From positions 3,904,001 through 3,968,000 of the forward strand of contig CBDBDQ010000005.1 in NCBI GenBank assembly GCA_965203905.1: 64,000 nucleotides of DNA. The letters run 5' to 3'. Origin of the DNA: Spirochaetia bacterium (GTDB lineage: Bacteria > Spirochaetota > Spirochaetia > SZUA-6 > Bin103). The position numbers were made by a program, and so were the translations under genes. The first letter of the stretch is position 1; the number at the start of each line of letters is the position of its first letter. The notes beneath the pieces are model-generated. The model did not search any database, had not been told where the DNA came from, and saw nothing but the letters and a program-made list of their open reading frames with translations. Positions 210-22,874 of this stretch are shown one piece after another.

Positions 210-239
210 AGTATACCGCCGGCCGGCCGCACCCGGCAA
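210..239 (-). promoter_or_regulatory. sigma70-like promoter TTGCCG-N18-TATACT facing leuB, at the 3' edge of the HNH element
   Basis: Minus strand -35 at 239-234 and -10 at 215-210. Confidence 0.55.
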
Positions 240-358
240 CGAAGCCTCGGGGGAGCCGGGACTATCCCACGCTGCGCGAGAAGCCGACTACCGATCGTTG
301 CTCCCGCTGCCCTTGGACCGACGCCCGACGACCCAACTCGCATCCTGGCGAGCGCCGA

Positions 359-1936
359 TCACGTGGCCCCGTCTGGCGGCGATCCGTACACCCGATGCCG
401 GAAACGGTGGTGAGCAGAACAATGAAGCCTCAAGTTCCGCGGCTCGGCACTGCCGCCAAGCGCGAAGGGAACGATGTGGTCGAGCTCCAGCAGGAAGCAG
501 GACCCGCAGCGCCGTCCGCTGTGCGGATCGACGTAACTGCAGCGGCCGCCGTCGCGGCGCCACACCTCGCGCTTCACTGGTGCCGGGATGTAGCGGGATC
601 GACGCGCCCGGTGGGGCGGCGGCGCACTGCCTCCGGAGGGGCCGGATGCCGCGGGCGGCGGCCGCGAACGGCCATCGAGCTGCGCCGCCCCTGGCCGCTT
701 CGCTGGCGAAGTACGGTTGCGACCGCGATCCGCCCCTGCCCGCGCGGTCGGCATACTCTGTTCTGCCGGCGGCGTCGGTACGGTGGCGTGGGACCCACGA
801 TTGGCTACCGACTTCGCCGCCGAAGCAGCGGTTCCGGACGCCGCCGCTGGCTTGCCACTCACCGGGATGATGCTGTCGCAAGTCTCGCGCCCCGCCGGCG
901 GCGCGGGCAGCGCTGCCATCGCCGAGGTGCTGGCGCCGCCAATCCCGCGCGCGGGCTCCTCTGCGGACAGCGCTGCCGGCGCCGGGGTGCTGCCACCGGT
1001 GATCGTGCCCTCCGGCGGCGGCGGCACTCCGGGTTGCTCTTGCGCGTCCCGCTTCGCCGGCGAATCCGCCCCGCCCGCCGGCCCTTGCTGCGCCTGCGGC
1101 TCCGGCGCCTGGCCCGCGCTTGCCTCCCGGCGCCCACCTCTGCGCCCGCGCGGCGGCCGCCCCGGGTCGTAGCGCTGCAGGCCGTCCTGCACCAGCCGCT
1201 CCACGAGCTGCCCCAGCGTCAGGTGCGGGTCCACGTGCGACAGCAGTGCCCGTAGCTGCTCGATCCCGCGCTGACACTCGGCGTCGATCACCACCTTCAG
1301 CTCCCAGCGGCCGTCGCCCAGCGCCCGCATGCGATCGGCCGGCCGCGCCAGCTCGGGAGCCACCCCGGCCAACAACTGCTTCACCTCGCGCGTGCTCTTG
1401 CCGCTCGCCTGCGCCACCAGCTCCTGCCGCTGCGCCGCGTCCAGCGCCGGCACCGGTGGCGCCGGCGCCGCTGCCCCGGTCCCCAAAGCCCCCGCCTCCG
1501 GCGTCGTCCCGGTGGCGCCCGGCAGCAGCTCCGGTGCCGCGGGTGCCGCGCCGGGGTCCGCGGCGGCGGTCGCGGTGCGCTGCAGGAGATCGAAGGTGTT
1601 CTGCAACTGCGCCGCCGCGCTCAGGGAGAGTGAGCCGTCCTGCAGCCGCTCGCGTGTCCCGGCGGTCTCGGAGCACAGGCGCATAGCCTTTATACGGCGC
1701 CACGCGGCGCCTTCGCTGTAGCCCAGTTCCCGCACCGCGTAGTCGAACAGGCTGGAGAACCCGAGGCGCAGGTGCAGGTGGCGGGCGTGGATCTCGCGCA
1801 GGTGGTCGAGGACGGCGAGCTGCAGCGCCTGCTCGTGCAGGACGAGGGACCTGGTGTGCGCCAGCAGCACCTGGTCGGGGAGCCCGGAGAGCGAGGAGGC
1901 GAAGCCGGTAGGGGTCGCGGTAGCCACAGTAGCCAT
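359..1936 (-). CDS. HNH endonuclease with DUF222-like N-terminal domain and low-complexity linkers
   Basis: C-terminal RYIPAPVKREVWRRDGGRC...C...LELDHIVPFALGG...NLRLHCSAHH; N-terminal LGFSSLFDYAVRELGYSEGAAWRRIKAMRL. Confidence 0.85.
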   Translation of the reverse strand: MATVATATPTGFASSLSGLPDQVLLAHTRSLVLHEQALQLAVLDHLREIHARHLHLRLGFSSLFDYAVRELGYSEGAAWRRIKAMRLCSETAGTRERLQDGSLSLSAAAQLQNTFDLLQRTATAAADPGAAPAAPELLPGATGTTPEAGALGTGAAAPAPPVPALDAAQRQELVAQASGKSTREVKQLLAGVAPELARPADRMRALGDGRWELKVVIDAECQRGIEQLRALLSHVDPHLTLGQLVERLVQDGLQRYDPGRPPRGRRGGRREASAGQAPEPQAQQGPAGGADSPAKRDAQEQPGVPPPPEGTITGGSTPAPAALSAEEPARGIGGASTSAMAALPAPPAGRETCDSIIPVSGKPAAASGTAASAAKSVANRGSHATVPTPPAEQSMPTARAGADRGRNRTSPAKRPGAAQLDGRSRPPPAASGPSGGSAPPPHRARRSRYIPAPVKREVWRRDGGRCSYVDPHSGRRCGSCFLLELDHIVPFALGGSAEPRNLRLHCSAHHRFRHRVYGSPPDGAT

Positions 1937-2394
1937 GGCGTAAATATAAGCATGGCTGAGAAATGGCCGGTTTCTGCGAGTCCCGGATCGGCACCTGGAA
2001 GGCCTCAGGCCAGCGCTGGCGGGGTACTGGCGGGCCTGGAGGGCGTGGCGGGATGCTCGAAGGGTAGGACGGGCCGGAACGTGCGTCAGGGGGCCGTAAC
2101 GAGCGGCGCCAAACCCGTCAAGTGCTCAGCGCACCTTTTTGGCACTTTTTCGCACAATCCTGCCACGCGCCGCCAACGTGGCAGCAACGCATCGGCGGAG
2201 ACCGGCGCGTTGCGGGTAGCCCCTCGTTTCTGGACACATCGTACAGCGAACGAACCACACACCCTGAAGGCGGCGATCTACAGGCGGCGCGCCGCGCCGG
2301 GGCCATCACCGCAGCTCGCCCACACACGGGATGCAGACGTCGTTCAGCATGGGATGGCCCTGGGCGGGAGGCGAGGTTCGGATCGCCGTGCCCC

Positions 2395-4041
2395 TCAGAG
2401 TCGCCGCGCCGATTCGCCCCAGTGCCAGTCGGGCTGGTCGACGCGGTAGCTGTGGTAGCTCATCGCCGGCTGCCACCGCGGCCACTCCAGCTCCACCCCG
2501 TCCCGCTCCAGCCGCCGCTGCAGCGCCGTCAGGAGTTCGCTGTCGCCACGTACCGCGCGCGGCCGCACGCTGCGGTCCAAGCAGAAGGCCGCCAGGTGCC
2601 CCGCGGCCTCGCCGGTCGACCATTCGTTGGGGTGGAGCCGGAAGCAGCCGTTGGTGACGTGGGTTGCGCCGATGTTCTTGCACGCCGGCAGCAGGTTGTC
2701 GACCCGGATCGGCAGCAGGGCCCCGAGCGACAGTTGCTGCGGCCAGTGCTTGCGGTGCAGGCTCAAGGTGTAGCTCTGCCCTGCCGGGTGCGGCTCGTGC
2801 ACGTCGATGCGGTAGCCGCCCACCGCCACCGCGTCGGCGAACCGCTCGGGCGCCTCTTCCCGTCCCGGCTGCTCGCGGTGGAACGAGCGCTCGGTCACCG
2901 TGTATTCGGCGCGGATGCGGCGCGACTCGCGGATGTAGGGCTGGACCGCGAGGCCGTCGGCGCTGTCGAACACGTCCGGCCGCGGCCGGATGCCGGGAAA
3001 GCCGCGCCGGCCGCGGTAGCCGGGCTCGATCTCGGTCTGCAGGAAGTGCAGCAGTGACAGGCTCAACTGGCGCGCCGCCTCCCGGTTGGCCGCCGCTTCC
3101 CGCGGCGGGACGCCGCACAGCACACCATCGCGGTACTCGTTGCCGCTCATCAGCATGGTCACGTCGGCGTCGATGGTACCCGGCAGGAAGTTGGCCGCGC
3201 ACAGCACGCGCCGGAAGTTCCAGATGCAGAACTGGTAGGGCTGCGACGGGTCATCCATGGATGCGGCGAACAGGCGGCGCTGCTTCAGCGCGGGGTCGTC
3301 GGAGACGCCCACCAGGGAGGCGAAGCCGTCGCGGTAGCGGGCGTAGTCGGGCGGGCGCTCGACGGTGTGGTCCTCGCCGGGGCGGTAGTCGACGGCGACC
3401 AGGTGCGTGAAGCCCTGCTGGCGCAGGGGATCGGCGTGCTCCAGGGCGTTCGGCTCGCCGGTTTCTGCACGCGCCTCGGCGCCGATCACGTGCTCGACGC
3501 TGCCCAGCTCCAGGAGCTCGCCCAGGTCGGTGGCGTCCAGCACGTAGTCGGCCGCGACGGTCAGCAGGTCGCCGCCGCGGGTGGACTGCAGCGTGACGGC
3601 CGGTATCAGGTCGCGGTCTGATTCCACCGCCACCGGCCGATGGTGCAGCGCCAGCAGGATGCGCGCGGCCGCCAGGTAGGGGGCGAGCATCTCCTCCAGC
3701 ACCGCGCGGCCCACCTTGGGCTCGAAGCACAGCGCCGACACCCAGCCGGCCCCGGGGTTGAACGCCCGCTCCGCGCGCGACTGCGCGGTGAGCGGGTAGT
3801 TGCGCCGGTAGTAGTCGCGCACCGAGCGCCGGAACTGGCGGTAGCTCTCGCTGGAGCCGTAGCGCTCGATCCACGGGTGCTCGTCCAGCGGCACCCCCTG
3901 GGCAGTGGCCTGACCGCCGATCCAACCGCTCTCCTCGGTGAGCACCACCCGGCGCCCGGCGCGCGCCGCCGCCAGGGCCGCCGACACCCCGCCGAAACTG
4001 GCCCCCACGATCAGAATCTCCGAGTCCCATTCACGATGCAC
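2395..4041 (-). CDS. FAD-dependent oxidoreductase (FAD_oxidored family)
   Basis: ILIVGASFGGVSAALAAAR, WIGGQATAQG, DATDLGEL and PYIRESRRI motifs; GTG start after GAGGGG. Confidence 0.85.
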   Translation of the reverse strand: MHREWDSEILIVGASFGGVSAALAAARAGRRVVLTEESGWIGGQATAQGVPLDEHPWIERYGSSESYRQFRRSVRDYYRRNYPLTAQSRAERAFNPGAGWVSALCFEPKVGRAVLEEMLAPYLAAARILLALHHRPVAVESDRDLIPAVTLQSTRGGDLLTVAADYVLDATDLGELLELGSVEHVIGAEARAETGEPNALEHADPLRQQGFTHLVAVDYRPGEDHTVERPPDYARYRDGFASLVGVSDDPALKQRRLFAASMDDPSQPYQFCIWNFRRVLCAANFLPGTIDADVTMLMSGNEYRDGVLCGVPPREAAANREAARQLSLSLLHFLQTEIEPGYRGRRGFPGIRPRPDVFDSADGLAVQPYIRESRRIRAEYTVTERSFHREQPGREEAPERFADAVAVGGYRIDVHEPHPAGQSYTLSLHRKHWPQQLSLGALLPIRVDNLLPACKNIGATHVTNGCFRLHPNEWSTGEAAGHLAAFCLDRSVRPRAVRGDSELLTALQRRLERDGVELEWPRWQPAMSYHSYRVDQPDWHWGESARRL

Positions 4042-4144
4042 CGCAACCCCTCTCAGACGTGGTCCCAGCTCCGCGCCGACCGACCCCGGCGCGCCGAATT
4101 GCCCGATGCGCCCCCGCAGGCGCCGTCCCCGCCGCGGGCGCACG

Positions 4145-4550
4145 TCAGCCCCGAGAGTCTGGCACTGCCGGCGGTGATTGACCAGGCTCCATATTCGTCA
4201 GTTCGCTGCAGTAGTCACGCAGATAGCCACGATCGCGAGCCAACAGCCGGTCGCTGTGGACCTGAGCGTGCGCGCCGATGAGAAGTCCGGCACGACCCGC
4301 CCCGCGGGTCCTCCGCGTTCGAGATACCGCGCAAAGTGCTGGCCGGCCAACGCCGCGGCTGCCTCGCTGCCGGGCACAAACTCGACGCCGAGATCGTGCA
4401 GCATTCAGTCAGTTCCATATTCGACTGCAGCGCGGGTATGGTTTCCGCGACTACGCATTCGCAACGCGATCAGGCGCCCTTCCCGACGGGTCCGCTGCAG
4501 GGCCTCCACGCGCCGCGCCCCCTGCTCCGTGAGTGCCCTGCATTCAGCCA
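4145..4550 (-). pseudogene. Frameshifted PIN/VapC toxin remnant
   Basis: Frames stitch to EALQRTRREGRLIA / CECVVAETIP / LGVEFVPGSEAAAALAGQHFARY...RVVPDF / LIGAHAQVHSDRLLARDRGYLRDY. Confidence 0.7.
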
Positions 4551-4627
4551 TCGTCAGCCCCATCCCCTCGGAACCTCCTCGCGCTCTACGAAGGGCTCCG
4601 GACCGGACCCTCAGGTCCAGCCTCTTC

Positions 4628-4673
4628 GGTTAGATTCTTAAATGAGGCACGCTTTCCGCAGGGTTAGATTCTT
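4628..4673 (+). repeat. 12-bp direct repeat GGTTAGATTCTT at the left edge of the AT-rich islet
   Basis: Exact copies at 4628-4639 and 4662-4673. Confidence 0.75.
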
Positions 4674-4692
4674 GATGAGTCAATGCGGCTTA

Positions 4693-4721
4693 TTGACATT
4701 CACCTCCTAATCGGGTATCGT
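4693..4721 (+). promoter_or_regulatory. sigma70 promoter TTGACA-N17-TATCGT
   Basis: Perfect -35 at 4693-4698, 17-bp spacer, -10 at 4716-4721. Confidence 0.7.
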
Positions 4722-4724
4722 CGG

Positions 4725-4816
4725 AGCGGAATGGAAGGGGAATCCGCATGCAGGGGTTCTTGCTTCGTTCTTCCTCGCATGCGGTAGAGGAACTCCTAAC
4801 CTTGCCCCATTCCACT
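4725..4816 (+). ncRNA. Putative structured small RNA or leader upstream of the HEPN-like gene
   Basis: GGAATGG 4728-4734 pairs with CCATTCC 4807-4813; CCGCATGC 4744-4751 pairs with GCATGCGG 4777-4784; starts at the expected TSS of the promoter. Confidence 0.45.
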
Positions 4817-4891
4817 ATTTTAGTAAAAAGAGCCGGCATATCGGTGTTTGGTCTGCTTGTTATCCCACCAAGGCACGTCAGTGCCGACGGA

Positions 4892-4900
4892 TGATATAGT
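4892..4900 (+). promoter_or_regulatory. Extended -10 promoter TGaTATAGT for the islet CDS
   Basis: TG-n-TATAGT; small inverted repeat GGCAC-GTCA-GTGCC at 4872-4885 just upstream. Confidence 0.5.
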
Positions 4901-4962
4901 GGCCCCCTTCAATGGGCACCCCGTACTCTTTTCTACATAGACAATTTTGGAGGACAATTCGA

Positions 4963-6084
4963 GTGGATAATTTCTATGGACTACCGATAGTGGAAATGAT
5001 GGATGATGCTATACATGAAAGGCTCTCAGGAGATCTTGATTCTGTCAGTTTAGTTGTCTGGCGAAAGGACATAGAACATGGGAATATCGAACCAGCATTG
5101 AACGAATTGAACAAATTGTTGGATACAGGGAAGAATATTGTCCGTTTTCGTAGCTGGCTCGATCTGTCAGTTTACGGCTATGACGATGATAGTCGGGAAC
5201 TTTGTGAGATATCTGATGTGTGTTCGTACTTTGAACAGTTGACAACTTCGTTTCCATATCTTTTCTTCTTTTTGAATACTCAATTTCCAACATTGAAGGC
5301 AATTATGTATTGTATCTGTGGTGGTCAGGTCTTGAGAAAACTGGCAAGTGGCATTACACAGTATGAAATAGATGATGAGAAATTTCACGCATTTTGGTTA
5401 GAGCAGTGCACTGGTCTTAACGATTTGTTTGAGAAGAACAACTTGGACAAATCGTATCCAGCACTCAATAGAGAAATCACGCTACAGGTTAAGAGCTATT
5501 TTGAACCCGAAGAAGTGGAGTCTATGGCTGATGATTCCTACATATCTGACTTTCTGGACGAATACCTGACGGATAAAGGGTTTGATTTTACTCGAATGCT
5601 CGATGACGATTTTATGGATGCTATTCGGTTACTATGGGAGAAGAACCACTACTCACCTGCGCTGAAGCTCCTGTTCATCATGCTGGATACTTTGGCCTTT
5701 GTGGAATATGGCGACGTCCCCAATGCGTTCGTCCAGTGGATAGATCGGTACTTTGATTTGCGTCCATTAGATGTAAGTTCCGAGGAATTGTGGGAACTTC
5801 GCAACGGAATGATTCACATGTCCGGGTCAGATTCTAGGAAAGTAAAGAATAACAAAGTCTCCCGTCTGGTTCTAGTGTTATGGCCTGCGACGGAGGAGCT
5901 TCCAGTAAAGACTATTAGTGTCGGTAAGTCACTTCACGTTTCGCGCTTATTTGCCGTAGTAATGCCCAAAGGTATTGTTAATTGGGTCAATGCCATGAAT
6001 GATAAAGGTCGATTCGTCGATGTGGTTAAGAAGTACGCTGACACAGTGTTGTCAATGACTCGAATTATTCGATTGGAACAATAA
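4963..6084 (+). CDS. CRR6/DUF1817-like domain fused to a HEPN-like (RxxxxH) domain; putative defence toxin
   Basis: AT-rich ORF; GGAGG at 4949-4953 before GTG 4963; GYDDDSRELCEISDV..YF..L...FPYLFFFL (CRR6-like); ELWELRNGMIH (R-x4-H). Confidence 0.65.
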   Translation: MDNFYGLPIVEMMDDAIHERLSGDLDSVSLVVWRKDIEHGNIEPALNELNKLLDTGKNIVRFRSWLDLSVYGYDDDSRELCEISDVCSYFEQLTTSFPYLFFFLNTQFPTLKAIMYCICGGQVLRKLASGITQYEIDDEKFHAFWLEQCTGLNDLFEKNNLDKSYPALNREITLQVKSYFEPEEVESMADDSYISDFLDEYLTDKGFDFTRMLDDDFMDAIRLLWEKNHYSPALKLLFIMLDTLAFVEYGDVPNAFVQWIDRYFDLRPLDVSSEELWELRNGMIHMSGSDSRKVKNNKVSRLVLVLWPATEELPVKTISVGKSLHVSRLFAVVMPKGIVNWVNAMNDKGRFVDVVKKYADTVLSMTRIIRLEQ

Positions 6085-6417
6085 GATACAAAGTGAACCA
6101 CTTAAGTTGCCCCTTAATCAGAAAATCGCGCCAACGAGACCCTTCTAAGAAATGTCTAATTGCGTCGGTAATCTCTTTAACTATATTATATTGTGGTGTG
6201 GTTCGACTGCGGTTTTCGTCTCCTCCAGTTGGAACTTGCCTGCTACTGGCACCTCGCGCCGGAACGGTACCCTCTCTTCGCCGCCCACCTGCCCTCCTGT
6301 TCCTAACGAGCCTCACCCGTCCGTGACAGGGACGACCACGAAACCCGGCTTCGGCATCGTACGCTGACCGGCACTCGGTTGTGTCAGTCGACACGGTCAC
6401 CCTGTGACGCCTAGCGC

Positions 6418-6580
6418 CTATGGCGGCGCCTGCACGGCGATACTCGGTGCGAACGCTTCGTAGTAACGCACGTTCCAGGTGATGATCGTCGATGCTTCGG
6501 CCTTCAGTGCGGCTACCGCGATGAGCACGTCGGGATACGGCGCAGGCAGTCTCTCAGGGCCGCATAGGTCGTCGACTCAC
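6418..6580 (-). pseudogene. Truncated PIN toxin (C-terminal remnant) behind the AbrB antitoxin
   Basis: YPDVLIAVAALKAEASTIITWNVRYYEAF resembles a PIN C-terminus; the frame from the GTGA-coupled start stops after 8 codons. Confidence 0.6.
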
Positions 6581-6849
6581 TCAGCCATCTCCGGCTTCTT
6601 CGGTCCGTTGCGAAGTTCCGCAATCGTCCTGGTTACCTCTGCCGCGCGCATGACCGGCTGGTTCTCGTTGGGTACTGCGACCACGAGAGAGCTGCGGCGC
6701 TGCAGGATGACCGTCAGCGGGACCGGTTCGATCTCCACGTGGCCGCCCTGCACGCGAAACTGGACCTCGGTGCCCGGGCGCAGATTGGCCGCTTCGCGAA
6801 TCGCCTTGGGCACAACGATACGGCCGGCGTGGTCAATGGTAGATCTCAT
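6577..6849 (-). CDS. AbrB/MazE/SpoVT family antitoxin
   Basis: MRSTIDHAGRIVVPKAIREAANLRPGTEVQF. Confidence 0.85.
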   Translation of the reverse strand: MRSTIDHAGRIVVPKAIREAANLRPGTEVQFRVQGGHVEIEPVPLTVILQRRSSLVVAVPNENQPVMRAAEVTRTIAELRNGPKKPEMAE

Positions 6850-6954
6850 GTCACCATCGGTACCATCTGACTTGCCATCGCACAAGCCATTGTCACGACG
6901 CCCCGAACGCGGGCCGGTTCCGGGTGGTATGATGGGCCGCGGAGGGTCGCCATC

Positions 6955-8250
6955 ATGCCCAACCTGGTGTTCATCATGTCCGACCAGGCGCGCAAGGACG
7001 TGGTGTTCCACGAGCAGTATCCCTTCGTGCGCACGCCGCACATCGACGGGTTGCGCGGCGAGGCGGTGTCGTTTTACCACTGCTTCGCCAACTACCCGGT
7101 GTGCGTGCCTTCGCGCGCCTCGGTGATCACCGGCCGCTATCCGCACCAGATCGGCGTGCTGCACAACACCCACCGCCTGCCGCCCGGCGAGCGCGACCTC
7201 GGCCACCACCTGTCGGCGCACGGCTTCGACTGCGTCTCGTTCGGCAAGACCCACAACACCAACCACGGCTTCCGCTCGGTCACCTACGACAAGGTGGCCA
7301 CCATGGGGTTCGAGAACCACGGTTACCTCGAGGATCCAGACCTGATCACCGGCGTGTTCGAGGGGCCGGCCGACGAGTACTGCGACTTCGTGGCATGCCG
7401 ACAGTTCGACGACTACCTGCGCGGGCGCGCCGGCGGCGGGCCGTTCGCGGCCTTCGTGGGCATCTACGCCCCGCACCCGCCCCTGTATCCGCCGCGCGAG
7501 TACGCCGGCCTCTACGGCGCCGAGGAGACCGCGCTGCCGCCACGGCCGAACGCGCAGGACAACGCGGCGCGGCCGTCGATCCAGACAGTCCCGCGCCGGC
7601 GCTGGAACGCCTATCCCGACGCCACCCGGCGCCAGGTGATCGCCTCGTACCTGGCTCTGATCACGTTGCTCGACGAGTGCGTGGGCCGCATCCTGGCCAC
7701 GCTGCGGGAGACCGCGACGCTCGACGACACCCTGGTGGTGCTGGTTTCCGATCACGGCGACCAGCTCGGCGAGCACGGCATGGCCGGCAAGATGGGCAAT
7801 CTCTACGAAGCGTCGATCCGGGTACCGCTGGTGATCCGCCTGCCGGGCGCCGAGCGTGCCGGCGCCGAACGTTCGCAGCTCGTGGAGATGGTGGACCTGT
7901 TCCCGACCATCTGCGACCTCCTCGGCGTGCCGCATCCCGAGGGCGTGCAGGCACCGGCGGGCCGCAGCCTGGCACCGGTCGTCGCCGACCGGCGGGCGGA
8001 GCACCGCCGCGTGGTGCACGCGATGCTGCTGGAGGGCCAGATGGCGCGCAGCCGGGACCTGAAGCTCAACTTCTACGCCGACGACACCTGCGAGCTCTAC
8101 GATCTGGCCGCCGACCCCGCCGAGATGGTCAACCGCTACGACGATCCCGCCTACCGCGACCGCCGCCAGGAACTGCTGGAAGAGATCGCCCGCTTCCTGA
8201 TCCGCCACCCCCGCGTCCCCGATCGCGGCAGAAACGGATACTTCGGGTAG
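6955..8250 (+). CDS. Sulfatase (Cys-type, choline-sulfatase-like)
   Basis: PNLVFIMSDQ, CVPSRASVITG, GKTH, SDHGD, ELYDL. Confidence 0.9.
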   Translation: MPNLVFIMSDQARKDVVFHEQYPFVRTPHIDGLRGEAVSFYHCFANYPVCVPSRASVITGRYPHQIGVLHNTHRLPPGERDLGHHLSAHGFDCVSFGKTHNTNHGFRSVTYDKVATMGFENHGYLEDPDLITGVFEGPADEYCDFVACRQFDDYLRGRAGGGPFAAFVGIYAPHPPLYPPREYAGLYGAEETALPPRPNAQDNAARPSIQTVPRRRWNAYPDATRRQVIASYLALITLLDECVGRILATLRETATLDDTLVVLVSDHGDQLGEHGMAGKMGNLYEASIRVPLVIRLPGAERAGAERSQLVEMVDLFPTICDLLGVPHPEGVQAPAGRSLAPVVADRRAEHRRVVHAMLLEGQMARSRDLKLNFYADDTCELYDLAADPAEMVNRYDDPAYRDRRQELLEEIARFLIRHPRVPDRGRNGYFG

Positions 8251-8294
8251 TTGACGCTGCTGTGTGGCGAGCATCATGGGCAGCATGCGATCGG

Positions 8295-8324: not shown

Positions 8325-8333
8325 AAACTGAAG

Positions 8334-9609: not shown

Positions 9610-9612
9610 CCG

Positions 9613-14778: not shown

Positions 14779-14788
14779 AACCGCGACT

Positions 14789-16075
14789 TTACAGGCTGCG
14801 CTGCCGCAGCAGGCGGGTGATGTCGCGATGCAGGTCGGGCAGCACGTCCGCCGGCTGCTCACCGAGGACGTACATGCGCTCGATGGCGTTGCGCACCAGC
14901 TCGACGTACTGCGGGCGGCGCAGGTTTTCCGGCCAGACCGGGAGGTTGTAGGGGCGCACCTCGTAGATCGGCAGGAACTGCTGCACGAACGGATCGTCGG
15001 CGAACTGCGGATCCTGGTTCACCGCCGGCCGCGTGCCGATGTTGAAGCCCATCTCGACGTATTCGCGGTTGATCTCTTCCGACGTGAAGTACTTGATCCA
15101 CTCGAACGCGGCCTGCGGACTGCGCGTGCTCTTCAGGATGCTGAGGCAGCCGGCCACGTACTGCTGAAACCTGCCCATCGGCCCGGCCGGCAGCGGCGCC
15201 ATGTTGAACTCGTCGTCCTCTCCCATCTGCGCCTTGTAGAAGTTGCGGTTCCAGTAGTTGCCGATATTCATGGCGATCCGCCCGGAGCCGAACATCTCGT
15301 GCAGGTTGCCCTCCATCTGGTCGCCGGTCGGGGCCGAGTTGTCCTGGTAGATCAGGTCGTAGATGAATTGCGCGCCGGCCAGCGACTCGGGCGTGTCTGC
15401 CAGCGACTCGGTGCCGTCCCGACTGAGGAACCCGCCGCCGAAGCCATTGAGAATCATCTCCACCTCGACGTCGCTCATCGAGTAGCCGGTGCCGAACACC
15501 TCCGGGTTGCCGTCGTTGTCACTGTCCACCCGCAGGCTGCGCGCGGTTGCCGCCCAGTCGTCGGTGGTCCAGTCGGCGGACGGCGCCGCCATGCCGGACC
15601 CGGCGAAGAACTTGTTGTTGTACCACAGCACCGGGCGCGGCAGCGCGGTATACGGCAACCCGTACAGCTTGCCGTCGACCGTCAGCATGTCGATGGCCGC
15701 GGCGTAGTAGTTCTCCTTGTCGAGCCCGCTCTGCGCGGCGTACTCGTCGATCGGCACGATGGTGCCCTGGCGCGCGTACTGAGTGAGGTTGATCTCGGGG
15801 TTGGTGCGCACCACGTCGACGTGCTGGTTGGTGGCCACCGCGATCAGGATCTTCTGGTCGGCCTCGGCGCGGCTCGACGACAGGTGCACCACCTCCAGCT
15901 CGATGTCGGGAAACGCCTCCTCGAAGCGCGGCTTCAGGTCGTCGCGGATCCACTCGAACTCGGCGGCACCGATGCGGTACCAGAACACCACCTTCTCCGC
16001 GACCGCCAGTGCCGGCACCAGTCCACACCAGACCAGCGCCGCCAGCGCCACCAGGCCAATACGATTGCGTAGCAT
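14789..16075 (-). CDS. Sugar ABC transporter substrate-binding protein
   Basis: Signal peptide MLRNRIGLVALAALVW..ALA; DGKLYGLP; FGSGRIAM; AAFEWIKYFTS. Confidence 0.9.
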   Translation of the reverse strand: MLRNRIGLVALAALVWCGLVPALAVAEKVVFWYRIGAAEFEWIRDDLKPRFEEAFPDIELEVVHLSSSRAEADQKILIAVATNQHVDVVRTNPEINLTQYARQGTIVPIDEYAAQSGLDKENYYAAAIDMLTVDGKLYGLPYTALPRPVLWYNNKFFAGSGMAAPSADWTTDDWAATARSLRVDSDNDGNPEVFGTGYSMSDVEVEMILNGFGGGFLSRDGTESLADTPESLAGAQFIYDLIYQDNSAPTGDQMEGNLHEMFGSGRIAMNIGNYWNRNFYKAQMGEDDEFNMAPLPAGPMGRFQQYVAGCLSILKSTRSPQAAFEWIKYFTSEEINREYVEMGFNIGTRPAVNQDPQFADDPFVQQFLPIYEVRPYNLPVWPENLRRPQYVELVRNAIERMYVLGEQPADVLPDLHRDITRLLRQRSL

Positions 16076-16142
16076 TTGTTTCCTCTCCTTGGCCGCGGCG
16101 TGTCGGGACGGCCCGCCGGGCCCCAACCAAATTGTGGCGGCG

Positions 16143-16170
16143 ATTATATTCCGCCCCTCCGGCCCGTCAA
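16143..16170 (-). promoter_or_regulatory. sigma70 promoter TTGACG-N16-TATAAT for the ABC operon
   Basis: Minus strand -35 at 16170-16165, -10 at 16148-16143. Confidence 0.65.
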
Positions 16171-16222
16171 GCGATGCAGCCGGCGCGGCAGGGCGGCGTG
16201 GACGCAGTGCCGCGCCCGGCGG

Positions 16223-18334
16223 TCATCGAGCAGGAACGGGCTGGCGTTCCTTGAGCGCAGCGACCAGGTCGGCGCTGTCGTGGTGCCAGTTGGCGTCCGC
16301 GGCCCGGGCGTGCGCACCATCGCTGACGACGGCATCGAGCGCCACGCGGAGGCAGCGAATCGCCGCGCCGTCGAGGCACGCCAACACGACGCCGTCCGCG
16401 GTCGCGGCCATGGCACACGGGCCGCTGCCGCCGGGTACGGCTACCATGGTCTGCCGCCAGGAGCCGCCACCGGTGGAGGTGCCCAGCACGACACCTTCCT
16501 GGGTAGCCCACGCCGCCGCGTACAAGCGCCGCGTGCCGAGGGCGGCGTGATCGTCCTCGGTAAGCGTCAGCGCCACCACCGCGGCCCCCGGCGCGGGCGG
16601 TACGGCCGCCGCGGCCCCGTTGGCGCCGGCGGTGCCATGCGCGGTTCGCCAGCTGCGGCCACCGTCTGCGGACATCCAGCGGCGGTCGCCATCGGACACG
16701 ACCACCTCCGGTGGCGCATCGGTCTCCACTACCTCGGAGGCCATGGCGGCTACCTGCTCCACGCCCTCGGTGCGGCTGCGTGCGCCGTCCGCCACCGCGA
16801 ACGCCAGGCGGACGCCGGCCGCCGCGGCCTCCAGGCGGCCTACGGCGACCGCCGGCTGCCAGCGCTCCTCGTAACGGCGCAGCACGCTCAGCGTGCCGCC
16901 GGCCGCGTACGCGACCAGCACTTCTCCCGTGGGCAGCTCGGCGATCGCCAGGTCGCTGACCGGCGCAGCCACCTGCGCTGCGTGCTCGACGTAACCGCGG
17001 CGGCGACGCAGGTAGCTGTAGTAGGGGGCCAGGTCGAGGCGCGCGCCGGCTTCCCGCAGGCGTGCGCGCAGTGCCGGCACGTCCACCGCATCCACCGAAC
17101 GCGCCGGCGCCGCCAGCGCGGCCGCTACGCCGGCCGCGAAGCCGGTCTGGGCGCAGGTGCCCATCACCCGGAACGAGCTGGTGGCCAGGTGGTCGCCGCC
17201 CAGGCAGCGGCCTGGCACCAGCAGGTTGGCTGCGCCGCGCGGGCGCATGGCGCGCAGCGGTATCTGGTGCGGCGGGCACTGCACCGTGATGCCGGTGCCG
17301 GCGCGTTGCACCACGGTGGGCCAGTGGTAGTCGGTGTGGTAGGAGCCCACCGCCACCGCGTCGGGGAAGTGGCGCCCGGCGAGGATGTCGTCGGCGCGCA
17401 GCGAGTAGACCGCGTCCACCCGCCGCCCCTCGCGGATGCCGATGTGCGGCGCCACCCACGCCAGGCGGTGGTTGGGATAGCACGCTCCGCGGTAGCCGCG
17501 CGTCTGCAGGTAGTGCACCACCCCGATCATCTGCCGCCGGCCCGCCTGCTCCGCCGCCGACAGCGAGGCGCCGTCGGTGGCGTCGTGGCCGATCACCTTC
17601 ATCTTCACGGTCACGTGGTAGCCATGTGGGATGACCGTGATCATCGGCACGTCCTCGTCGTCCCGGTAGCGCGGACAGCCGGGCGGGAGCTGCGGCTGCA
17701 CCGGCGCGCCGTTGTCCACCAGGGTGAAGTAGAGGCTCATCGGCAACTGGCGCCGGCCCGCCGCCTCGTCCACCGTCGGCGGGTCGCCCGGCATCAGCAC
17801 CGGGCCGCCCTTGCGGAACGGCCAGCCGCCGCGCGCCACCAGGTCGGCATCGCCGGTGGCGTCCACCGCCACCGCGGGTGCGACCCGGGTCAGGCCGCTC
17901 TTGTTGGCCAGCACCACGCCGGCCACGCGTTCGCCCTCCCGCTCCACGGCCAGTACCTGCGTGTGCAGCAGCAGTTCCACGCCCGCCTCGGCGAGCATCT
18001 CCTGCAGCACGAACTTCAGGCTCTCGCAGTCGAAGGCGCGCCCGTCGGCGTTGGGCCGGTAGCGGTGGATGCCGCCGAAGGCGTCAAGCCGGCGCAACAT
18101 CTCGCGCCAGCGGTCGTTGACGAAGCGGGTCTCGCCGCAGAAGGTGTGCACCCCGCCGGCGGTGCCCTGCCCGCCGACGAAACCGTGCTGCTCGACCAGC
18201 AGCACGCCCGCCCCGTGGTCCGCCGCCGCGAGCGCCGCGTACACTCCGGCCACGCCGCCGCCGGCGACCAGGACGGCCACGCTCCGCTGTGCGCGGAGCG
18301 GTAACGTCACGCTACTCTCGTTCATGGTGCTCAT
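16223..18334 (-). CDS. FAD-dependent oxidoreductase with C-terminal Asp-box/BNR-like extension
   Basis: VLVAGGGVAG, VGGQGTAGGV, VDATGDAD, GIREGRR; tail with SADGGRSW and STGGGSW. Confidence 0.85.
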   Translation of the reverse strand: MSTMNESSVTLPLRAQRSVAVLVAGGGVAGVYAALAAADHGAGVLLVEQHGFVGGQGTAGGVHTFCGETRFVNDRWREMLRRLDAFGGIHRYRPNADGRAFDCESLKFVLQEMLAEAGVELLLHTQVLAVEREGERVAGVVLANKSGLTRVAPAVAVDATGDADLVARGGWPFRKGGPVLMPGDPPTVDEAAGRRQLPMSLYFTLVDNGAPVQPQLPPGCPRYRDDEDVPMITVIPHGYHVTVKMKVIGHDATDGASLSAAEQAGRRQMIGVVHYLQTRGYRGACYPNHRLAWVAPHIGIREGRRVDAVYSLRADDILAGRHFPDAVAVGSYHTDYHWPTVVQRAGTGITVQCPPHQIPLRAMRPRGAANLLVPGRCLGGDHLATSSFRVMGTCAQTGFAAGVAAALAAPARSVDAVDVPALRARLREAGARLDLAPYYSYLRRRRGYVEHAAQVAAPVSDLAIAELPTGEVLVAYAAGGTLSVLRRYEERWQPAVAVGRLEAAAAGVRLAFAVADGARSRTEGVEQVAAMASEVVETDAPPEVVVSDGDRRWMSADGGRSWRTAHGTAGANGAAAAVPPAPGAAVVALTLTEDDHAALGTRRLYAAAWATQEGVVLGTSTGGGSWRQTMVAVPGGSGPCAMAATADGVVLACLDGAAIRCLRVALDAVVSDGAHARAADANWHHDSADLVAALKERQPVPAR

Positions 18335-18414
18335 AGATTCGTAGGTGCAATTCTCGTGTCGCAATCTCGCCGCGTCAAATGCTGCGTTCGCCAAACCGGT
18401 CGGACGCGGCTTCG

Positions 18415-18618
18415 CTACCGGAACACGAGCCGCTTGCGGCTGGCGGCGCACTCCCGAAGATAGAGATTGATCAGCGTCTGGTAGGGGATGCGGCTGTCGG
18501 CTGCAAGTGCCTTGAAATACTCCAGCGTGTCCAGGTCCAGCCGTATCGTGACCTGTCTCTTGAGATGCTTCGCATAGGGATTTCGTTTCGCCTTGGAGAA
18601 GTCGTAGTTGTCTCTCAT
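18415..18618 (-). CDS. brnA: BrnA-type antitoxin
   Basis: MRDNYDFSKAKRNPYAKHLKRQVTIRLD...IPYQTLINLYLR. Confidence 0.88.
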   Translation of the reverse strand: MRDNYDFSKAKRNPYAKHLKRQVTIRLDLDTLEYFKALAADSRIPYQTLINLYLRECAASRKRLVFR

Positions 18619-18911
18619 CACGCCCACCTGCGTTCGTATTCGGCGCGCTCCACGCGGCTGGCCTTGCGGGCTGAAAAGATCCGGATGATCTCGTCATCCT
18701 CGCGGTAGCAGTGACAGACCACCAGGGTCCGCAGCGCCAGGCTCATCCCAATGAGCACAAACCGATCCTTATCGTCCGAGTGATCCGGGTCGCCGATGAG
18801 CAAAGCCCGATCGTCATAAAACACGCTCTGGGCCTCGTGGAACGAAACGCCGTGTTTGCGGTTGTTCTCGGCACTCTTGCGCTCGTCCCACTGAAATCGA
18901 ATCTCATCCAC
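18618..18911 (-). CDS. brnT: BrnT ribonuclease toxin
   Basis: FQWDERKSAENNRKHGVSFHEA...IRIFSARKA. Confidence 0.92.
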   Translation of the reverse strand: MDEIRFQWDERKSAENNRKHGVSFHEAQSVFYDDRALLIGDPDHSDDKDRFVLIGMSLALRTLVVCHCYREDDEIIRIFSARKASRVERAEYERRWA

Positions 18912-18919
18912 ACGAGTGC

Positions 18920-18949
18920 ATCATAACTACACTGTAATGATATCGTCAA
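18920..18949 (-). promoter_or_regulatory. brnTA promoter TTGACG-N18-TATGAT
   Basis: Near-consensus hexamers; TACA-G-TGTA palindrome in the spacer; -10 lies 8 nt from the GTG. Confidence 0.6.
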
Positions 18950-19396
18950 GCTCGCGATGTCGCCGTCCCGAACACCCAGCGGCAACCGGTCTGGTCTACG
19001 CGGTAGTTGTGTGCCTCATCGCCGGCGGCCGCGCCCCGCTGCCTCGGCGGTCGACCAGGCGCTTGGGGTGCCGCTCGAGCGGCCGTTAGTGATGTGGGTG
19101 GCGCCGATGTCCTCGCGCCCCAGCATATTGTCGACCCGGACTCCCGGACTGGCAGCAACGCACCGTTTTGGCAGTTGCTGCAATCAGTGCTTGCCGTGAC
19201 CTGCCGCGCACGGCGGCGCGAGTCGGCATCGATTGCTGAGCCACCCGAATCGGGCGTGGCAGCGGGCGGCGCGAGCGCTACGCCAACTTCAGTAATGCCC
19301 GGCATGCGCTGCGGCGCCTGCGGCCGCTGCGCGCTGACGGACTTTCCACGATGCCGCGCTCGCCCTGTTCGACCCCGGCGTGCGCATGCTGCTCGC

Positions 19397-19455
19397 GTGG
19401 CATACGCGGACCGGATCACTATCGAGCCTGGAAAGCGTGGCGGCAAGCCCCTGCC
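19397..19455 (+). pseudogene. DUF433 antitoxin 5' fragment
   Basis: VAYADRITIEPGKRGGKP is the characteristic DUF433 N-terminus; sequence then breaks off. Confidence 0.7.
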
Positions 19456-19520
19456 TGTGTCGATCCGGCAGTCCGTGGCCGGCGGTGGTGTATATGGCTA
19501 ATGTATGCTTTGAGTTGACG

Positions 19521-19763
19521 GTGACGAGAACTCAGATCTACCTGACCGACGAGCAGAGGGACAGCCTCGGGAGCCAGTCTGCAAGGACTGGCCGACCGAT
19601 GAGTGAACTGATTCGGGAAGCACTCGACGAGTACCTTCGACGCCACCGACCGGAGCGGCGACAAGAAGTACTTCGCAGCGTAGCGGGCCTCTGGGCCGAT
19701 CGAACAGACCTCGCGCAGTTGGACGACGCGCGCGCTACGCTGGACAGAGATCTGTCGCCGTGA
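19521..19763 (+). CDS. vapB: CopG/RHH VapB antitoxin
   Basis: TRTQIYLTDEQ...MSELIREALDEYL...AGLWADRTD. Confidence 0.85.
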   Translation: MTRTQIYLTDEQRDSLGSQSARTGRPMSELIREALDEYLRRHRPERRQEVLRSVAGLWADRTDLAQLDDARATLDRDLSP

Positions 19764-20149
19764 GTGGCATTCTCCTGGACTCCGATATCGCCATCGACTA
19801 CCTGCGCGGAGTCCAGGCAGCGGTCGAGTTCGTCCAGCGGCATGAAAATGAGATTTCCCTGTCGGCGGTGACGGTTGCCGAGCTGTTCGCCGGTGTGAGG
19901 GAGGGCGACGAGACCGACAAGCTGGAGGAGTTCGTGGGGTTGTTTCCCGTGATTCCGGTCGCCCTGGAGGTGGCGAAGACGGCAGGTCTTCATCGCCGGG
20001 ATTTCGGTCCTTCCCACGGCACCGGTCTGGCTGATGGAATGTTGGCGGCTACGGCGGACCTTCATGCACTGGAGCTGAGAACGTTGAGCACCCGCCACTA
20101 CCCGATGTTTCAGGGCCTTCGCGCGCCGTACGTGCGGCCCCCTTCTTGA
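19760..20149 (+). CDS. vapC: PIN-domain VapC toxin
   Basis: ILLDSDIAIDYLRG, TVAELFAG, LADGMLAATA; GTGA coupling. Confidence 0.92.
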   Translation: MSGILLDSDIAIDYLRGVQAAVEFVQRHENEISLSAVTVAELFAGVREGDETDKLEEFVGLFPVIPVALEVAKTAGLHRRDFGPSHGTGLADGMLAATADLHALELRTLSTRHYPMFQGLRAPYVRPPS

Positions 20150-20220
20150 CCCGGCAGCGCGCTCGGCATCGGGACGAGGGCCGCTACCGACGCTGGCCGA
20201 CCGACCCGACCGAATCACAC

Positions 20221-20252
20221 TTGCCACGTATTCCGTGCGCACGTATTCTGTG
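20221..20252 (+). promoter_or_regulatory. TA promoter TTGCCA-N17-TATTCT overlapped by tandem CACGTATTCYGTG operators
   Basis: Repeats at 20225-20237 and 20240-20252; ATG 6 nt after the -10. Confidence 0.65.
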
Positions 20253-20255
20253 TCG

Positions 20256-20483
20256 ATGAATCTCACACTGTCGGTGGATGAACAGATCGTGAAGCGGGCT
20301 CGTACCACGGCTGCGGCGATGGGCATGAGTCTGAACCAGGCGGTGCGCAACTACCTCGGCGAACTCGCCGGGCAGTCGTCGCCGGCAGCGGACATCGCCG
20401 AGATCGAACACCTGTCGTTGGTCGCGGGCGGCAATCGGCGCGGCTGGCGCTTCGACCGCGAGCATCTGCACGAACGTGCGTAG
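20256..20483 (+). CDS. DUF6364-type antitoxin
   Basis: MNLTLSVDEQIVKRAR...SLNQAVRNYL...WRFDREHLHER. Confidence 0.85.
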   Translation: MNLTLSVDEQIVKRARTTAAAMGMSLNQAVRNYLGELAGQSSPAADIAEIEHLSLVAGGNRRGWRFDREHLHERA

Positions 20484-20886
20484 TTTCTTCGACACCAACG
20501 TCCTTGCGTACACCGACGACGCCGGGGAGCCGAACAAGCAGGCCACGGCCCTGAAGCTGCACGCCGCCAGCCACCAGCGCGGCCAGGGCGTCGTCTCCAC
20601 GCAAGTGTTGCAGGAGTACTTCGTCACGGCGACGCGAAAGATGGGTGTGGACCCGGTCATCGCACGTCGCAAGCTGGAGTTGTTCTCCCGCATGAACGTG
20701 GTGGTGAATCAGGTCGACGACGTTATCGCGGCCGTGGATCTTGCGCGACTCCATTCCCTGTCGTTCTGGGACGCGCTCATCGTGCGGGCGGCTCAGCGCG
20801 CGGAATGCAGCGTGCTCTACTCGGAGGACATGCAGGACGGCTGGAGGATAGACGGCCTGCAGATCGTGAATCCGTTTACGACCTGA
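20476..20886 (+). CDS. vapC: PIN-domain toxin
   Basis: FFDTNVLAY, STQVLQEY, SFWDALIVRAA, LYSEDMQDG, NPF. Confidence 0.92.
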   Translation: MRSFFDTNVLAYTDDAGEPNKQATALKLHAASHQRGQGVVSTQVLQEYFVTATRKMGVDPVIARRKLELFSRMNVVVNQVDDVIAAVDLARLHSLSFWDALIVRAAQRAECSVLYSEDMQDGWRIDGLQIVNPFTT

Positions 20887-20961
20887 CCGCGACCCCGACG
20901 CGTTGGTCGGCGAGTGCAGTAGTGGGACGAGGAGATTGTCGTGTCTCAGTCACCATCTGGA

Positions 20962-22874
20962 TCAAGTGCCAAAAAAATTGCGCTGAGCACTTGACGGGTT
21001 TGGCGCCGCTCATAACGGCCCGCTGACGCACGTTCCGGCCCCTCCGACCCTGCGAACATCCTGCCACGGCCTCCAGGCCCATCAGAACCCGCCAGCGCCG
21101 GCCTGAGCCCTTCCAGGTGCCGGTCCGGGACTCGCCGAAACCGGGCATTTCTCAGCCATGCTTATATTTACGCCATGCCTTCCGCGACCTCCACCGGCTT
21201 CTCCTCCTCGCTCTCCGGGCTCCCCGACCAGGTGCTGCTGGCGCACACCAGGTCCCTCGTGCTGCACGAGCAGGCGCTGCAGCTCGCCGTCCTCGACCAC
21301 CTGCGCGAGATCCACGCCCGCCACCTGCACCTGCGCCTCGGGTTCTCCAGCCTGTTCGACTACGCGGTGCGCGAGTTGGGCTATAGCGAAGGTGCCGCGT
21401 GGCGCCGTATCAAAGCCATGCGCCTGTGCTCCGATACCGCCGGGACACGCGAGCGGCTGCAGGACGGCTCGCTCACCCTGAGCGCCGCGGCGCAGTTGCA
21501 GAACACCTTCGACCTCCTGCAGCGCACGGCGACCGCCGCCGCGGACCACGGCGCGCCACCCGCGGCACCGGAGCTGCTGCCGCGCGGCACGGGGCCGACG
21601 CCGGAGGCGGGGGCTTCGGGGACCGGGGCAGCGGCGGCGGCGCGACCGGTGCCGGCGCTGGACGCGGCGCAGCGGCAGGAGCTGGTGGCGCGGGCGAGCG
21701 GCAAGAGCACCCGCGAGGTGAAGCAGTTGTTGGCCGGGGTGGCTCCCGAGCTGGCGCGGCCGGCCGACCGCCTGCGGGCGCTGGGCGAGGGCCGCTGGGA
21801 GTTGAAGGTGGTGATCGACTCTGCCTGTCAGTGCGGGATCGAGCAGCTACGGGCACGGCTGTCGCACGTGGACCCGCACCTGACGCTGGGGCAACTGGTG
21901 CAGGACGGCCTGCAGCGCTACGACCCGGGGCGGCCGCGGCGCGGGCGCAGAGGTGGGCGCCGGGAGGCGAGCGCGGGCCAGACGCTGGAGCCGAAGACGC
22001 AGGAAGAGCCGGCGGGCGGGGTGACTTCGCCGCCGAAGTGGGGCGCGCAAGAGCAACCCGGAAAGCCACCGCTGGCGGGATCGATCGCCCGTTGCACCCC
22101 AGCGTCGGCAGCGCTGTCCGCAGAGGGAGCCGCGCGCGGCAATGGCGGCGCCGGTACCTCGGAGCTGTCCGCGCCGCCGTCGGGGCGCGAGACTTGCGCC
22201 GGCAGCACCCCGATGCGTGCCAAGTCAGCGGCGACTGAGCCCGGCAGGGCTACTTCGGCGCCGAAGTCGGTGGCCGATCGTGGGTCCCACGGCACCGTAC
22301 CGGCGCCACGGCCGACGCCGCCGGCAGACCAGGGCAGGCCGCCCGTGCTGGCAGCGACGGATCGCAGCCGCAACGCTCCTTTGCCAGCGAAGCGGGCAGG
22401 GACGGCGCAGCTCAATGGCTATTCGCGGCCTCAGTCGGCGGCAGCCGGCCCCTACGGAGGCAGCGCGCAGCCGCCTCACCGGGCGCGCCGATCCCGCTAC
22501 ATTCCGGCATCAGTGCGGCGCGAGGTGTGGCGCCGCGACGGCGGCTGCTGCAGTTACGTCGATTCGCACAGCGGGCGGCGCTGCGGGTCCCGCTTCCTGC
22601 TGCAGCTCGACCACATCGTTCCCTTTGCGCTCGGCGGCAGCGCCGAGCCGGGGAACTTGAGGCTCCATTGCGCTGCCCACAACCGTTTCCGGCATCGGGA
22701 GTACCGACCGCGGCCAGACGGGGCCACGTGATCCTCGCCGGGGTGCGAGTTGGGCGGTCGGGCGTCGGTCCGATGGCAACGGTCGTTACGATTGCGGCCG
22801 GTTTGTCGCGTAGCGTGGATAGTCCTGTCCCATCCCTCCACCTGTTGCCGGCGCGGGCCGGCGGGTATTACGGT
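20962..22874 (+). mobile_element. Putative HNH-nuclease element, copy 2 (inverted relative to copy 1)
   Basis: Homology to the reverse complement of 210-2147 begins at AAGTGCC (20964) and extends about 140 bp beyond the stop. Confidence 0.65.
21175..22731 (+). CDS. HNH endonuclease with DUF222-like N-terminal domain (paralog of 359-1936)
   Basis: Near-identical N-terminal domain; LQLDHIVPFALGG...NLRLHCAAHN; 4-codon deletion (ERLV) relative to copy 1. Confidence 0.85.
   Translation: MPSATSTGFSSSLSGLPDQVLLAHTRSLVLHEQALQLAVLDHLREIHARHLHLRLGFSSLFDYAVRELGYSEGAAWRRIKAMRLCSDTAGTRERLQDGSLTLSAAAQLQNTFDLLQRTATAAADHGAPPAAPELLPRGTGPTPEAGASGTGAAAAARPVPALDAAQRQELVARASGKSTREVKQLLAGVAPELARPADRLRALGEGRWELKVVIDSACQCGIEQLRARLSHVDPHLTLGQLVQDGLQRYDPGRPRRGRRGGRREASAGQTLEPKTQEEPAGGVTSPPKWGAQEQPGKPPLAGSIARCTPASAALSAEGAARGNGGAGTSELSAPPSGRETCAGSTPMRAKSAATEPGRATSAPKSVADRGSHGTVPAPRPTPPADQGRPPVLAATDRSRNAPLPAKRAGTAQLNGYSRPQSAAAGPYGGSAQPPHRARRSRYIPASVRREVWRRDGGCCSYVDSHSGRRCGSRFLLQLDHIVPFALGGSAEPGNLRLHCAAHNRFRHREYRPRPDGAT

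Follow-up and report, generated by a model that had tools for sequence, protein, structure and literature searches.

Mobile DNA without a transposase gene of its own is known from mobile insertion cassettes (MICs) such as MIC231 of Bacillus cereus, which consist of a passenger gene between the inverted repeats of an insertion sequence (IS) family and depend on a transposase for their mobility. HNH nuclease genes also form multicopy families, as in the mycobacterial REP13E12/DUF222-HNH genes with their C-terminal HNH domain, and one article (PMC10589994) names 'REP13E12/HNH endonuclease/DUF222' among repetitive elements near insertion sequences. Here we analyse a 64,000-nucleotide stretch from a Spirochaetia bacterium (assembly GCA_965203905.1, contig CBDBDQ010000005.1, positions 3,904,001 to 3,968,000, forward strand; hereafter the window), which holds two copies, one of them truncated, of a 2.1-kb element with an HNH nuclease gene. 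We put at roughly 0.8 the probability that this element is a non-autonomous, MIC-like derivative of the ISAs1 family of IS, with the HNH nuclease gene in the place of the transposase gene. A preliminary description, made from the letters alone, had proposed a multicopy mobile element without a transposase gene that moves by means of its own protein and flanking DNA or RNA; the first part holds; the second is not supported, and the ends and the 9-bp duplication are those of the ISAs1 family.

The ISfinder table gives the ISAs1 family ends that start with CAGGG and direct repeats of 8-10 bp. The window element likewise has CAGGG-starting ends, near-identical to those of a 2.17-kb IS of three congeners (G009, G011 and G019), and a 9-bp duplication; it differs in having no ISAs1 transposase and in being unrelated to that IS beyond ~20-40 bp of each end. 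Sister HNH elements, found in the same genome (subfamily 2) and in genome G001, have ISKra4-family ends with 8-9-bp duplications, whereas the ends of the window element are ISAs1-type. Compared with MICs, the present family is set apart by its number of loci (about 55, ~1% of the genome), by a nuclease passenger under purifying selection in nearly all copies, by the loss of any cognate transposase, and by the occurrence of the same passenger family on the ends of two IS families. It differs from the REP13E12/DUF222-HNH genes in that DUF222 was found in 0 of 25 members and that actinobacterial matches cover the HNH part only (residues 425-515 or 483-515). The element here has clear IS-type ends and duplications. 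The literature covered, some of it available in part and without subscription journals or ISfinder/TnCentral, gave no account of an HNH gene carried as a passenger between ISAs1 or ISKra4 ends.

Read as a cassette that has borrowed ISAs1 ends, what had looked like a 'transposase-less, self-propagating HNH element' becomes testable and largely ordinary. What is less usual is evolutionary, namely a nuclease passenger that takes up ~1% of an 8-Mb genome, sits on the ends of two IS families in one bacterial clade and is selected in seemingly immobile copies. For annotation, HNH repeats should be checked for IS-type ends before they are named as novel mobile elements.

Copies, ends and target duplications

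The two window copies, at 257-2362 (minus strand, copy A) and 20964-22827 (plus strand, copy B), are homologous with 87% mean column identity in pairwise alignment, and each has an open reading frame (ORF) with a C-terminal HNH motif and non-coding DNA on both sides. This agrees with the preliminary description, as does the lack of relation between their neighbours: copy A adjoins a gene for a flavin adenine dinucleotide (FAD)-dependent oxidoreductase, and copy B has a PIN-domain gene on one side and an AAA_21 ATPase gene on the other.

The host genome (G000) comprises 7.99 Mb in 5 contigs with 66% G+C. When copy B was used as a blastn query against it, 91 high-scoring segment pairs were obtained, 30 of which cover the whole ORF region at 84-89% identity. 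By our own count of the blastn table, the main family occupies about 55 loci, fragments and interrupted copies included, or roughly 1% of the genome; subfamily 2 adds 11 further loci that are ~74% identical in the coding part only.

The element had at first been bounded at 210 and 22874, with its upstream end at AAGTGCC, and had been thought to have neither terminal inverted repeats nor a target duplication. With copy A plus extra flank as query, homology in most copies extends ~215 bp past AAGTGCC and ends at window 2362-2364. Copy B aligns to positions 554-2442 of this query only, and other full copies begin at 337-339. The left end of the family thus lies at window 2362 in copy A, and the true ends had been missed because copy B lacks the first ~215 bp. 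The right ends are at 257 and 22827, and the ~47 bp beyond them that had been counted as part of the element reflect similarity between stretches of promoter-like target DNA.

Full copies are 2.1 kb long and have imperfect terminal inverted repeats of 17-24 bp (CAGGGCCATCCCATGCT...). Both ends are present in 20 copies, the left reading CAGGGCCATCCCATGCTGAACGAC and the right, as its reverse complement, CAGGACTATCCCACGCTACGCGAC. Among the 17 copies in which both ends were placed automatically, the flanking 9-mers match at 9/9 positions in 5 and at 8/9 in 3; the remaining 3 of the 20 were left out because one end was not located, and several low scorers are offset by one base. A perfect duplication flanks, for example, the copy at C5:1450945-1453083. 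When the left flank of one copy was instead compared with the right flank of another, 2 of 272 pairs reached 7/9 or more. The features of the two window copies are as follows.

257..2362, minus strand: copy A, non-autonomous and complete at 2,106 bp, running from the left to the right inverted repeat (boundaries from 20 genomic copies aligned with their flanks)
2363..2371, minus strand: left side of copy A's target duplication (9 bp, decayed), CCTCCCGCC (6/9 bases equal to its partner at 248-256)
2339..2362, minus strand: left terminal inverted repeat of copy A, CAGGGCCATCCCATGCTGAACGAC (17-mer core with 0 mismatches; 16/17 bases equal to the left end of the ISAs1-family IS of G009, G011 and G019)
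1937..2338, minus strand: 5' non-coding leader of copy A, ~400 bp, presumed promoter site (pairwise distance 0.12-0.21)
359..1936, minus strand: intact passenger ORF of copy A, 525 aa, with helical DNA-binding-like domains (N-terminal) and an HNH nuclease (C-terminal) joined by a disordered Pro/Ala/Gly linker
257..280, minus strand: right terminal inverted repeat of copy A, ...GCGCAGCGTGGGATAGTCCCG (1 mismatch to the family right-end 17-mer)
248..256, minus strand: right side of copy A's target duplication (9 bp, decayed), GCTCCCCCG (6/9 bases equal to its partner at 2363-2371)
210..239, minus strand: sigma-70-like promoter of the downstream gene (TTGCCG, 18 bp, TATACT), 17 bp past the right end of copy A (score 8.5; coordinates derived from the offset)
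20964..22827, plus strand: copy B, 5'-truncated, 1,864 bp, with the first ~215 bp including the left inverted repeat missing
21175..22731, plus strand: intact passenger ORF of copy B, 518 aa
22804..22827, plus strand: right terminal inverted repeat of copy B, ...GCGTAGCGTGGATAGTCCTG

Copy A is 85.7-95.3% identical to the other copies. The flanks of 20-30 copies are unrelated to one another, with a flank distance of about 1.7-1.8. Homing endonuclease genes are characterised by one specific target and hence homologous flanks, a feature that these unrelated flanks do not show. Plain segmental duplication without mobility, which would explain why the two window copies share flanking non-coding DNA, has that sole point in its favour; it is refuted by the spread of the family over about 55 dispersed loci in place of just two, with unrelated flanks, sharp ends in common, inverted repeats and 9-bp duplications.

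Source of the ends

An element of 2,114-2,170 bp in the congeners G011 (4 copies), G009 and G019 has CAGGGCGATCCCATGCT as its left and CAGGACGATCCCACGCT as its right end. The 606-aa protein that it encodes matches the ISAs1 transposase model NF033564 at 148.1 bits (cut-off 70) and also has DruA-like and DDE_Tnp_1_assoc domains. The left 17-mer of the HNH element agrees with the left end of this ISAs1-family IS at 16/17 bases, and the right end is similar. Both elements show the same asymmetry between their ends (CAGGGC...ATGCT vs CAGGAC...ACGCT) and the same orientation of the gene relative to them. Perfect 9-bp duplications flank all four IS copies of G011. Across the taxonomic family, the 17-mer end was found in 12 of 24 genomes, the host genome counted.

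The window ORFs themselves gave no match to the ISAs1 DDE transposase (NF033564, or DDE_Tnp_1 with DDE_Tnp_1_assoc). The element has a single ORF, and HNH is its sole Pfam or NCBIfam match, which confirms that no transposase gene is visible within it. A search of the whole host genome with NF033564 returned one fragment only, at 28.3 bits against the cut-off of 70, and tblastn with the transposase of G009 returned remnants and unrelated DruA-like N-terminal matches only. These remnants include a frameshifted piece of the transposase gene (contig C5, 4758228-4758768) and a right-end remnant (C5:4213322-4213730), in which 30 residues are 93% identical at the amino-acid level and the terminal repeat stands at the expected distance. 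An ISAs1-family IS was once resident in this genome.

The same ends also enclose other cargo. A 1,290-bp element of the host genome (G000:C5:5515052-5516341) carries, on the opposite strand, a 328-aa Rpn/YhgA-like PD-(D/E)XK gene (PF04754, 58.5 bits); further copies lie at C5:3261700-3262970 and at about C5:6957013-6957520, and a similar cassette occurs in G017 (locus L123). MITEs (miniature inverted-repeat transposable elements) of 138-142 bp with the same left and right ends and 9-bp duplications are present in G006 (L121, L122), a 3-Mb draft genome with 46 matches to the 17-mer end pattern. The host genome was also scanned for other transposons with these ends, allowing up to 2-3 mismatches; beyond the Rpn-like cassette, the matches examined were single-copy or due to chance.

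The HNH gene on ISKra4-family ends

The HNH gene is also found between ends of a second IS family. HNH elements of 1.5-1.8 kb in G001 are bounded by GGGCGCACTTCCAATTTGTTGGTA and flanked by 8-9-bp duplications; a scan of that genome gave 62 matches to the 19-mer end pattern and none to its reversed control. These elements share a 24-bp repeat with a 1,523-bp IS, which the 19-mer pattern bounds as well. At least 9 copies of this IS are present, and its 467-aa product is a transposase of the ISKra4 family (214.6 bits on NF033572, cut-off 205).

Subfamily 2 of the host genome is bounded by GGGTGCATTC... ends with 9-bp duplications (e.g. GGTTGATCG, ACTGTAGCA), and its interior holds remnants of an ISKra4-type transposase gene and a MITE-like internal deletion derivative. 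The same ends delimit the genome's only intact ISKra4-family IS (465-aa transposase, C5:2122519-2123913, duplication CAATCCTGG). An intact cognate IS is thus present in the same genome for subfamily 2, as it is in G001. The subfamily-2 composites, as at G000:C5:3696708-3699174 and about 10 similar loci, begin on the left with an ISKra4-type right end, followed by remnants of the transposase gene, by the HNH gene and by a ~227-bp MITE-like deletion derivative of the same IS, the whole being flanked by a 9-bp duplication.

As the HNH gene stands between three kinds of ends, each from a DDE IS, the sequences argue that the ends are probably read by DDE transposases rather than by the HNH protein. 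The contrary explanation makes the HNH protein the transposase of an autonomous element and the likeness to ISAs1 and ISKra4 ends a coincidence or mimicry. It would fit an element with one ORF only, which is under selection, a genome with no intact cognate transposase, and an N-terminal part that resembles site-specific DNA binders of the ParB/KorB type. It would leave to chance, however, that 16/17 bases and the left/right asymmetry are common to the HNH element and the ISAs1-family IS, that the 9-bp duplication is identical in length to that of the IS, and that for each of three unrelated end types there is a co-occurring or related DDE IS with matching ends; MITEs and the Rpn-like cassette moreover have the same ends without an HNH gene. 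HNH nucleases are not known to perform strand transfer, and we consider this explanation very unlikely.

Two further IS observations were made in the host genome. The intact ISKra4-family IS (G000:C5:2122487-2124020, ends included) lies ~130 bp from a main-family HNH copy (C5:2120197-2122353), and its right end faces a promoter-like TGACCC...TATTAT motif about 19 bp away. A 2,921-bp IS (G000:C5:5005554-5008474 and 4 more copies), which encodes a 320-aa DruA-like protein and a 537-aa ISKra4/ISLre2-like transposase, was considered as a partner and ruled out, its ends (GGGTGCGGCTCTTTT) being different. The five copies are 99-100% identical, and this IS has therefore probably been active recently.

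The HNH protein and the non-coding parts

The Pfam HNH model scored 20.1 bits on the copy A ORF and 20.4 bits on that of copy B, under its cut-off of 21.4; across 25 aligned relatives, HNH was matched in 25 and DUF222 (PF02720), with which the protein had been compared in the preliminary description, in none at E <= 0.1. An AlphaFold2 model built from 25 sequences had a mean predicted local distance difference test score (pLDDT) of 58, with confident regions at residues 21-126, 167-255 and 447-516 separated by Pro/Ala/Gly-rich linkers of low confidence. Foldseek found nothing in the PDB at E <= 0.001. VIA-align matched residues 34-256 to ParB/KorB DNA-binding domains (Z 7.2; root-mean-square deviations of 6.9 and 3.1 Å over 119 and 99 residues) and residues 437-520 to HNH nucleases (GVE2 enzyme, Z 6.6). 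As the Z scores are only middling (<=7.2), we treat the ParB/KorB likeness as a lead, not a finding; the predicted protein may join a site-specific DNA binder to an HNH nuclease through a disordered linker. The fold searches turned up ParB/KorB-like and HNH folds only and no DDE/RNase-H-like fold, which does not prove its absence. A PADLOC search for defence systems returned 0 families for two members of the family.

A role for flanking RNA had also been suggested, with HNH-containing IscB as the parallel, and an IscB-like RNA-guided system would draw its guide RNA from the leader or the tail. The ~400-bp leader upstream of the ORF offers room for such an RNA, and the protein has a weak NCBIfam IscB match (NF040563, 17-18 bits) and a structural likeness to IscB HNH domains (Z 5.7-6.0). 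That match, however, covers the HNH segment only and lies far under the cut-off of 175, and no RuvC-like fold turned up in the Foldseek or VIA-align searches. The window has no Rfam match at gathering thresholds. Consensus folds were computed with RNAalifold from 20 full copies, for both strands of the tail, of the entire leader and of its halves; compared with column-shuffled alignments, they gave z scores of -1.29 to +1.46. Leader and tail have diverged by 0.12-0.21 substitutions per site, compared with a synonymous distance of 0.155 in the ORF, so that the leader evolves near the neutral rate, and the leaders of the main family and subfamily 2 are unrelated. There is no support for a functional flanking RNA, and an RNA-guided system is highly unlikely here.

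Selection on the passenger gene and the mechanism of spread

Passenger ORFs are intact in 28 of 30 copies. The ratio of non-synonymous to synonymous differences from the consensus (pN/pS) is 1.03 in the linkers, but the three folded domains give 0.08, 0.26 and 0.22; the corresponding pairwise substitution ratios (dN/dS) in the folded domains are 0.07, 0.24 and 0.21. A neutral simulation at the linker rates left 17.9% of copies free of a new stop codon, and by our own arithmetic the binomial probability of at least 28 intact ORFs in 30 at p = 0.18 is of order 1e-18. Selection thus appears to preserve the passenger gene in seemingly immobile copies, and in a genome that lacks the cognate transposase.

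The copies are old. The tree of the 28 intact ORFs is star-like, its terminal branches summing to 2.06 and its internal ones to 0.33, and 20 full elements (190 pairs) have a median pairwise identity of 88.1% and a maximum of 95.3%. Perfect duplications at 5 of 17 copies are, again by our own arithmetic, about what is expected for insertions dating from the burst.

We propose that the DDE transposase of a cognate ISAs1-family element moved the cassette in trans. The enzyme would have bound the shared terminal inverted repeats of 17-24 bp and inserted the cassette with a 9-bp staggered cut, which would account for the 9-bp target duplications seen in the sequence. The star-like tree suggests one old burst to about 55 loci. 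The cognate transposase gene, of which only remnants are found in this genome, has decayed since then, and with it gone the copies are probably stranded now. Copy A is a complete fossil with a decayed duplication, and copy B has additionally lost its left end. As regards end recognition, the HNH protein would be cargo.

Several observations weigh against this account. In its own genome the window family has only remnants of a cognate IS and no autonomous one whose transposase is intact, and in no genome examined did an intact ISAs1-family IS occur together with HNH elements on these ends, so that mobilisation in trans is inferred from the shared ends and duplications; the genome is 98.7% complete, and a transposase copy may exist in the unassembled part. 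Similarity between the IS and the HNH element ceases ~20-40 bp in from each end. Insertion is evidenced by the duplications alone, since a search for empty alleles of copies A and B found none in 10 congeners, in which the flanking genes match at 87-96% and synteny breaks at the element; among the contigs of 4 public runs compared with window 1-3000, none joins 257 to 2363, which is uninformative either way. Finally, the cargo does not behave as inert cargo, with 28/30 ORFs intact where 18% were expected to be stop-free and low pN/pS in the folded domains.

Because intact and selected ORFs persist in seemingly immobile copies, we retain, as a tentative minority explanation, one in which nuclease activity contributes to spread or retention. 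Here the HNH protein would be an accessory factor that helps the cassette to spread or persist on borrowed ends, which is compatible with mobilisation in trans by a DDE transposase. TnsA of Tn7, an endonuclease-like protein with a restriction-endonuclease-like fold, is a stand-alone nuclease partner of a DDE transposase. The HNH protein might possibly cut the second strand at the ends or the donor site in a TnsA-like manner, or convert autonomous IS copies to HNH-bearing ones; it differs from TnsA in its HNH fold. Apart from purifying selection on the three folded domains and the excess of intact ORFs over the 18% expected from substitutions alone, such a role would agree with the numbers of HNH cassettes, which exceed those of the parent IS in each case (about 55 vs 0 intact; 11 vs 1; at least 35 vs at least 9 in G001), with the joining of the HNH gene to the ends of two different IS families, and with the nuclease type of the other cargo on these ends (Rpn/YhgA-like, PF04754). 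Against it, the signal of selection lies on terminal branches, after the burst, and a pure transposition helper should no longer be selected once the copies are seemingly immobile and the transposase is gone. Moreover, the N-terminal domain is about 75-80% conserved, by a by-eye estimate, across subfamilies with unrelated ends, and shows no sign of end-specific binding. If the nuclease does aid spread or retention, it would represent a new kind of accessory function in bacterial transposons and a lead for other multicopy HNH families.

It is conceivable, though we consider it unlikely, that the HNH family, perhaps together with the Rpn/YhgA-like nuclease, acts as a 'hyper-parasite' of DDE IS that seizes the ends of unrelated IS families (ISAs1, ISKra4), outcompetes the parent and is then retained by selection in dozens of copies after the transposase is lost. 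If true, this would imply an activity of its own in the spread or retention of copies and could account for other enigmatic multicopy HNH families.

Target choice

Ten of the 30 main-family copies, copy A included, have a same-strand sigma-70-like promoter (score >= 8) within 75 bp past the right end, compared with a random-genome rate of 2.5% (from genome-wide positions, not intergenic DNA only) and with 1/30 on the opposite strand. The distance from the right end to the start of the -35 box is 11-19 bp in 9 of these 10 copies. The main family may thus target promoter-proximal sites in one orientation, which resembles the insertion near promoters reported for ISKra4-group, ISLre2 and TnGBS elements; ISKra4-group elements are reported to insert in an oriented manner upstream of sigma-A promoters (PMC3942029). 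The ISAs1-family IS of G011 gave promoter scores of at most 7 and did not show the pattern, its four copies being too few for a judgement.

Occurrence in public runs and genes near copy B

The HNH family is present in public runs from several studies. The protein has ~1,300 homologues, among them metagenome proteins of 78-87% identity, some of which lie on contigs of 1.7-7.1 Mb. The left junction of copy A was found in two runs of different studies, with 0 and 1 differences. For runs X1, X2, X5 and X19, labelled sponge metagenome or 'metagenome', contig depth, when summed, is tens of times higher over the element than over the flanks. Element-matching contigs also occurred in one RNA-library run, from which no expression is inferred because DNA carry-over is possible.

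Directly upstream of copy B, window 19380-20886 contains two adjoining small-gene pairs, each ending in a PIN-domain (VapC-like) ORF (19760-20149 and 20476-20886). On its other side, an AAA_21 (AbiEii-like) ATPase gene overlaps a DUF4276 gene at 23044-24836 and with it resembles a two-gene defence-type module. This stretch recurs with 93% identity at G000:C5:7715484-7717303 and with 96% identity in G011.

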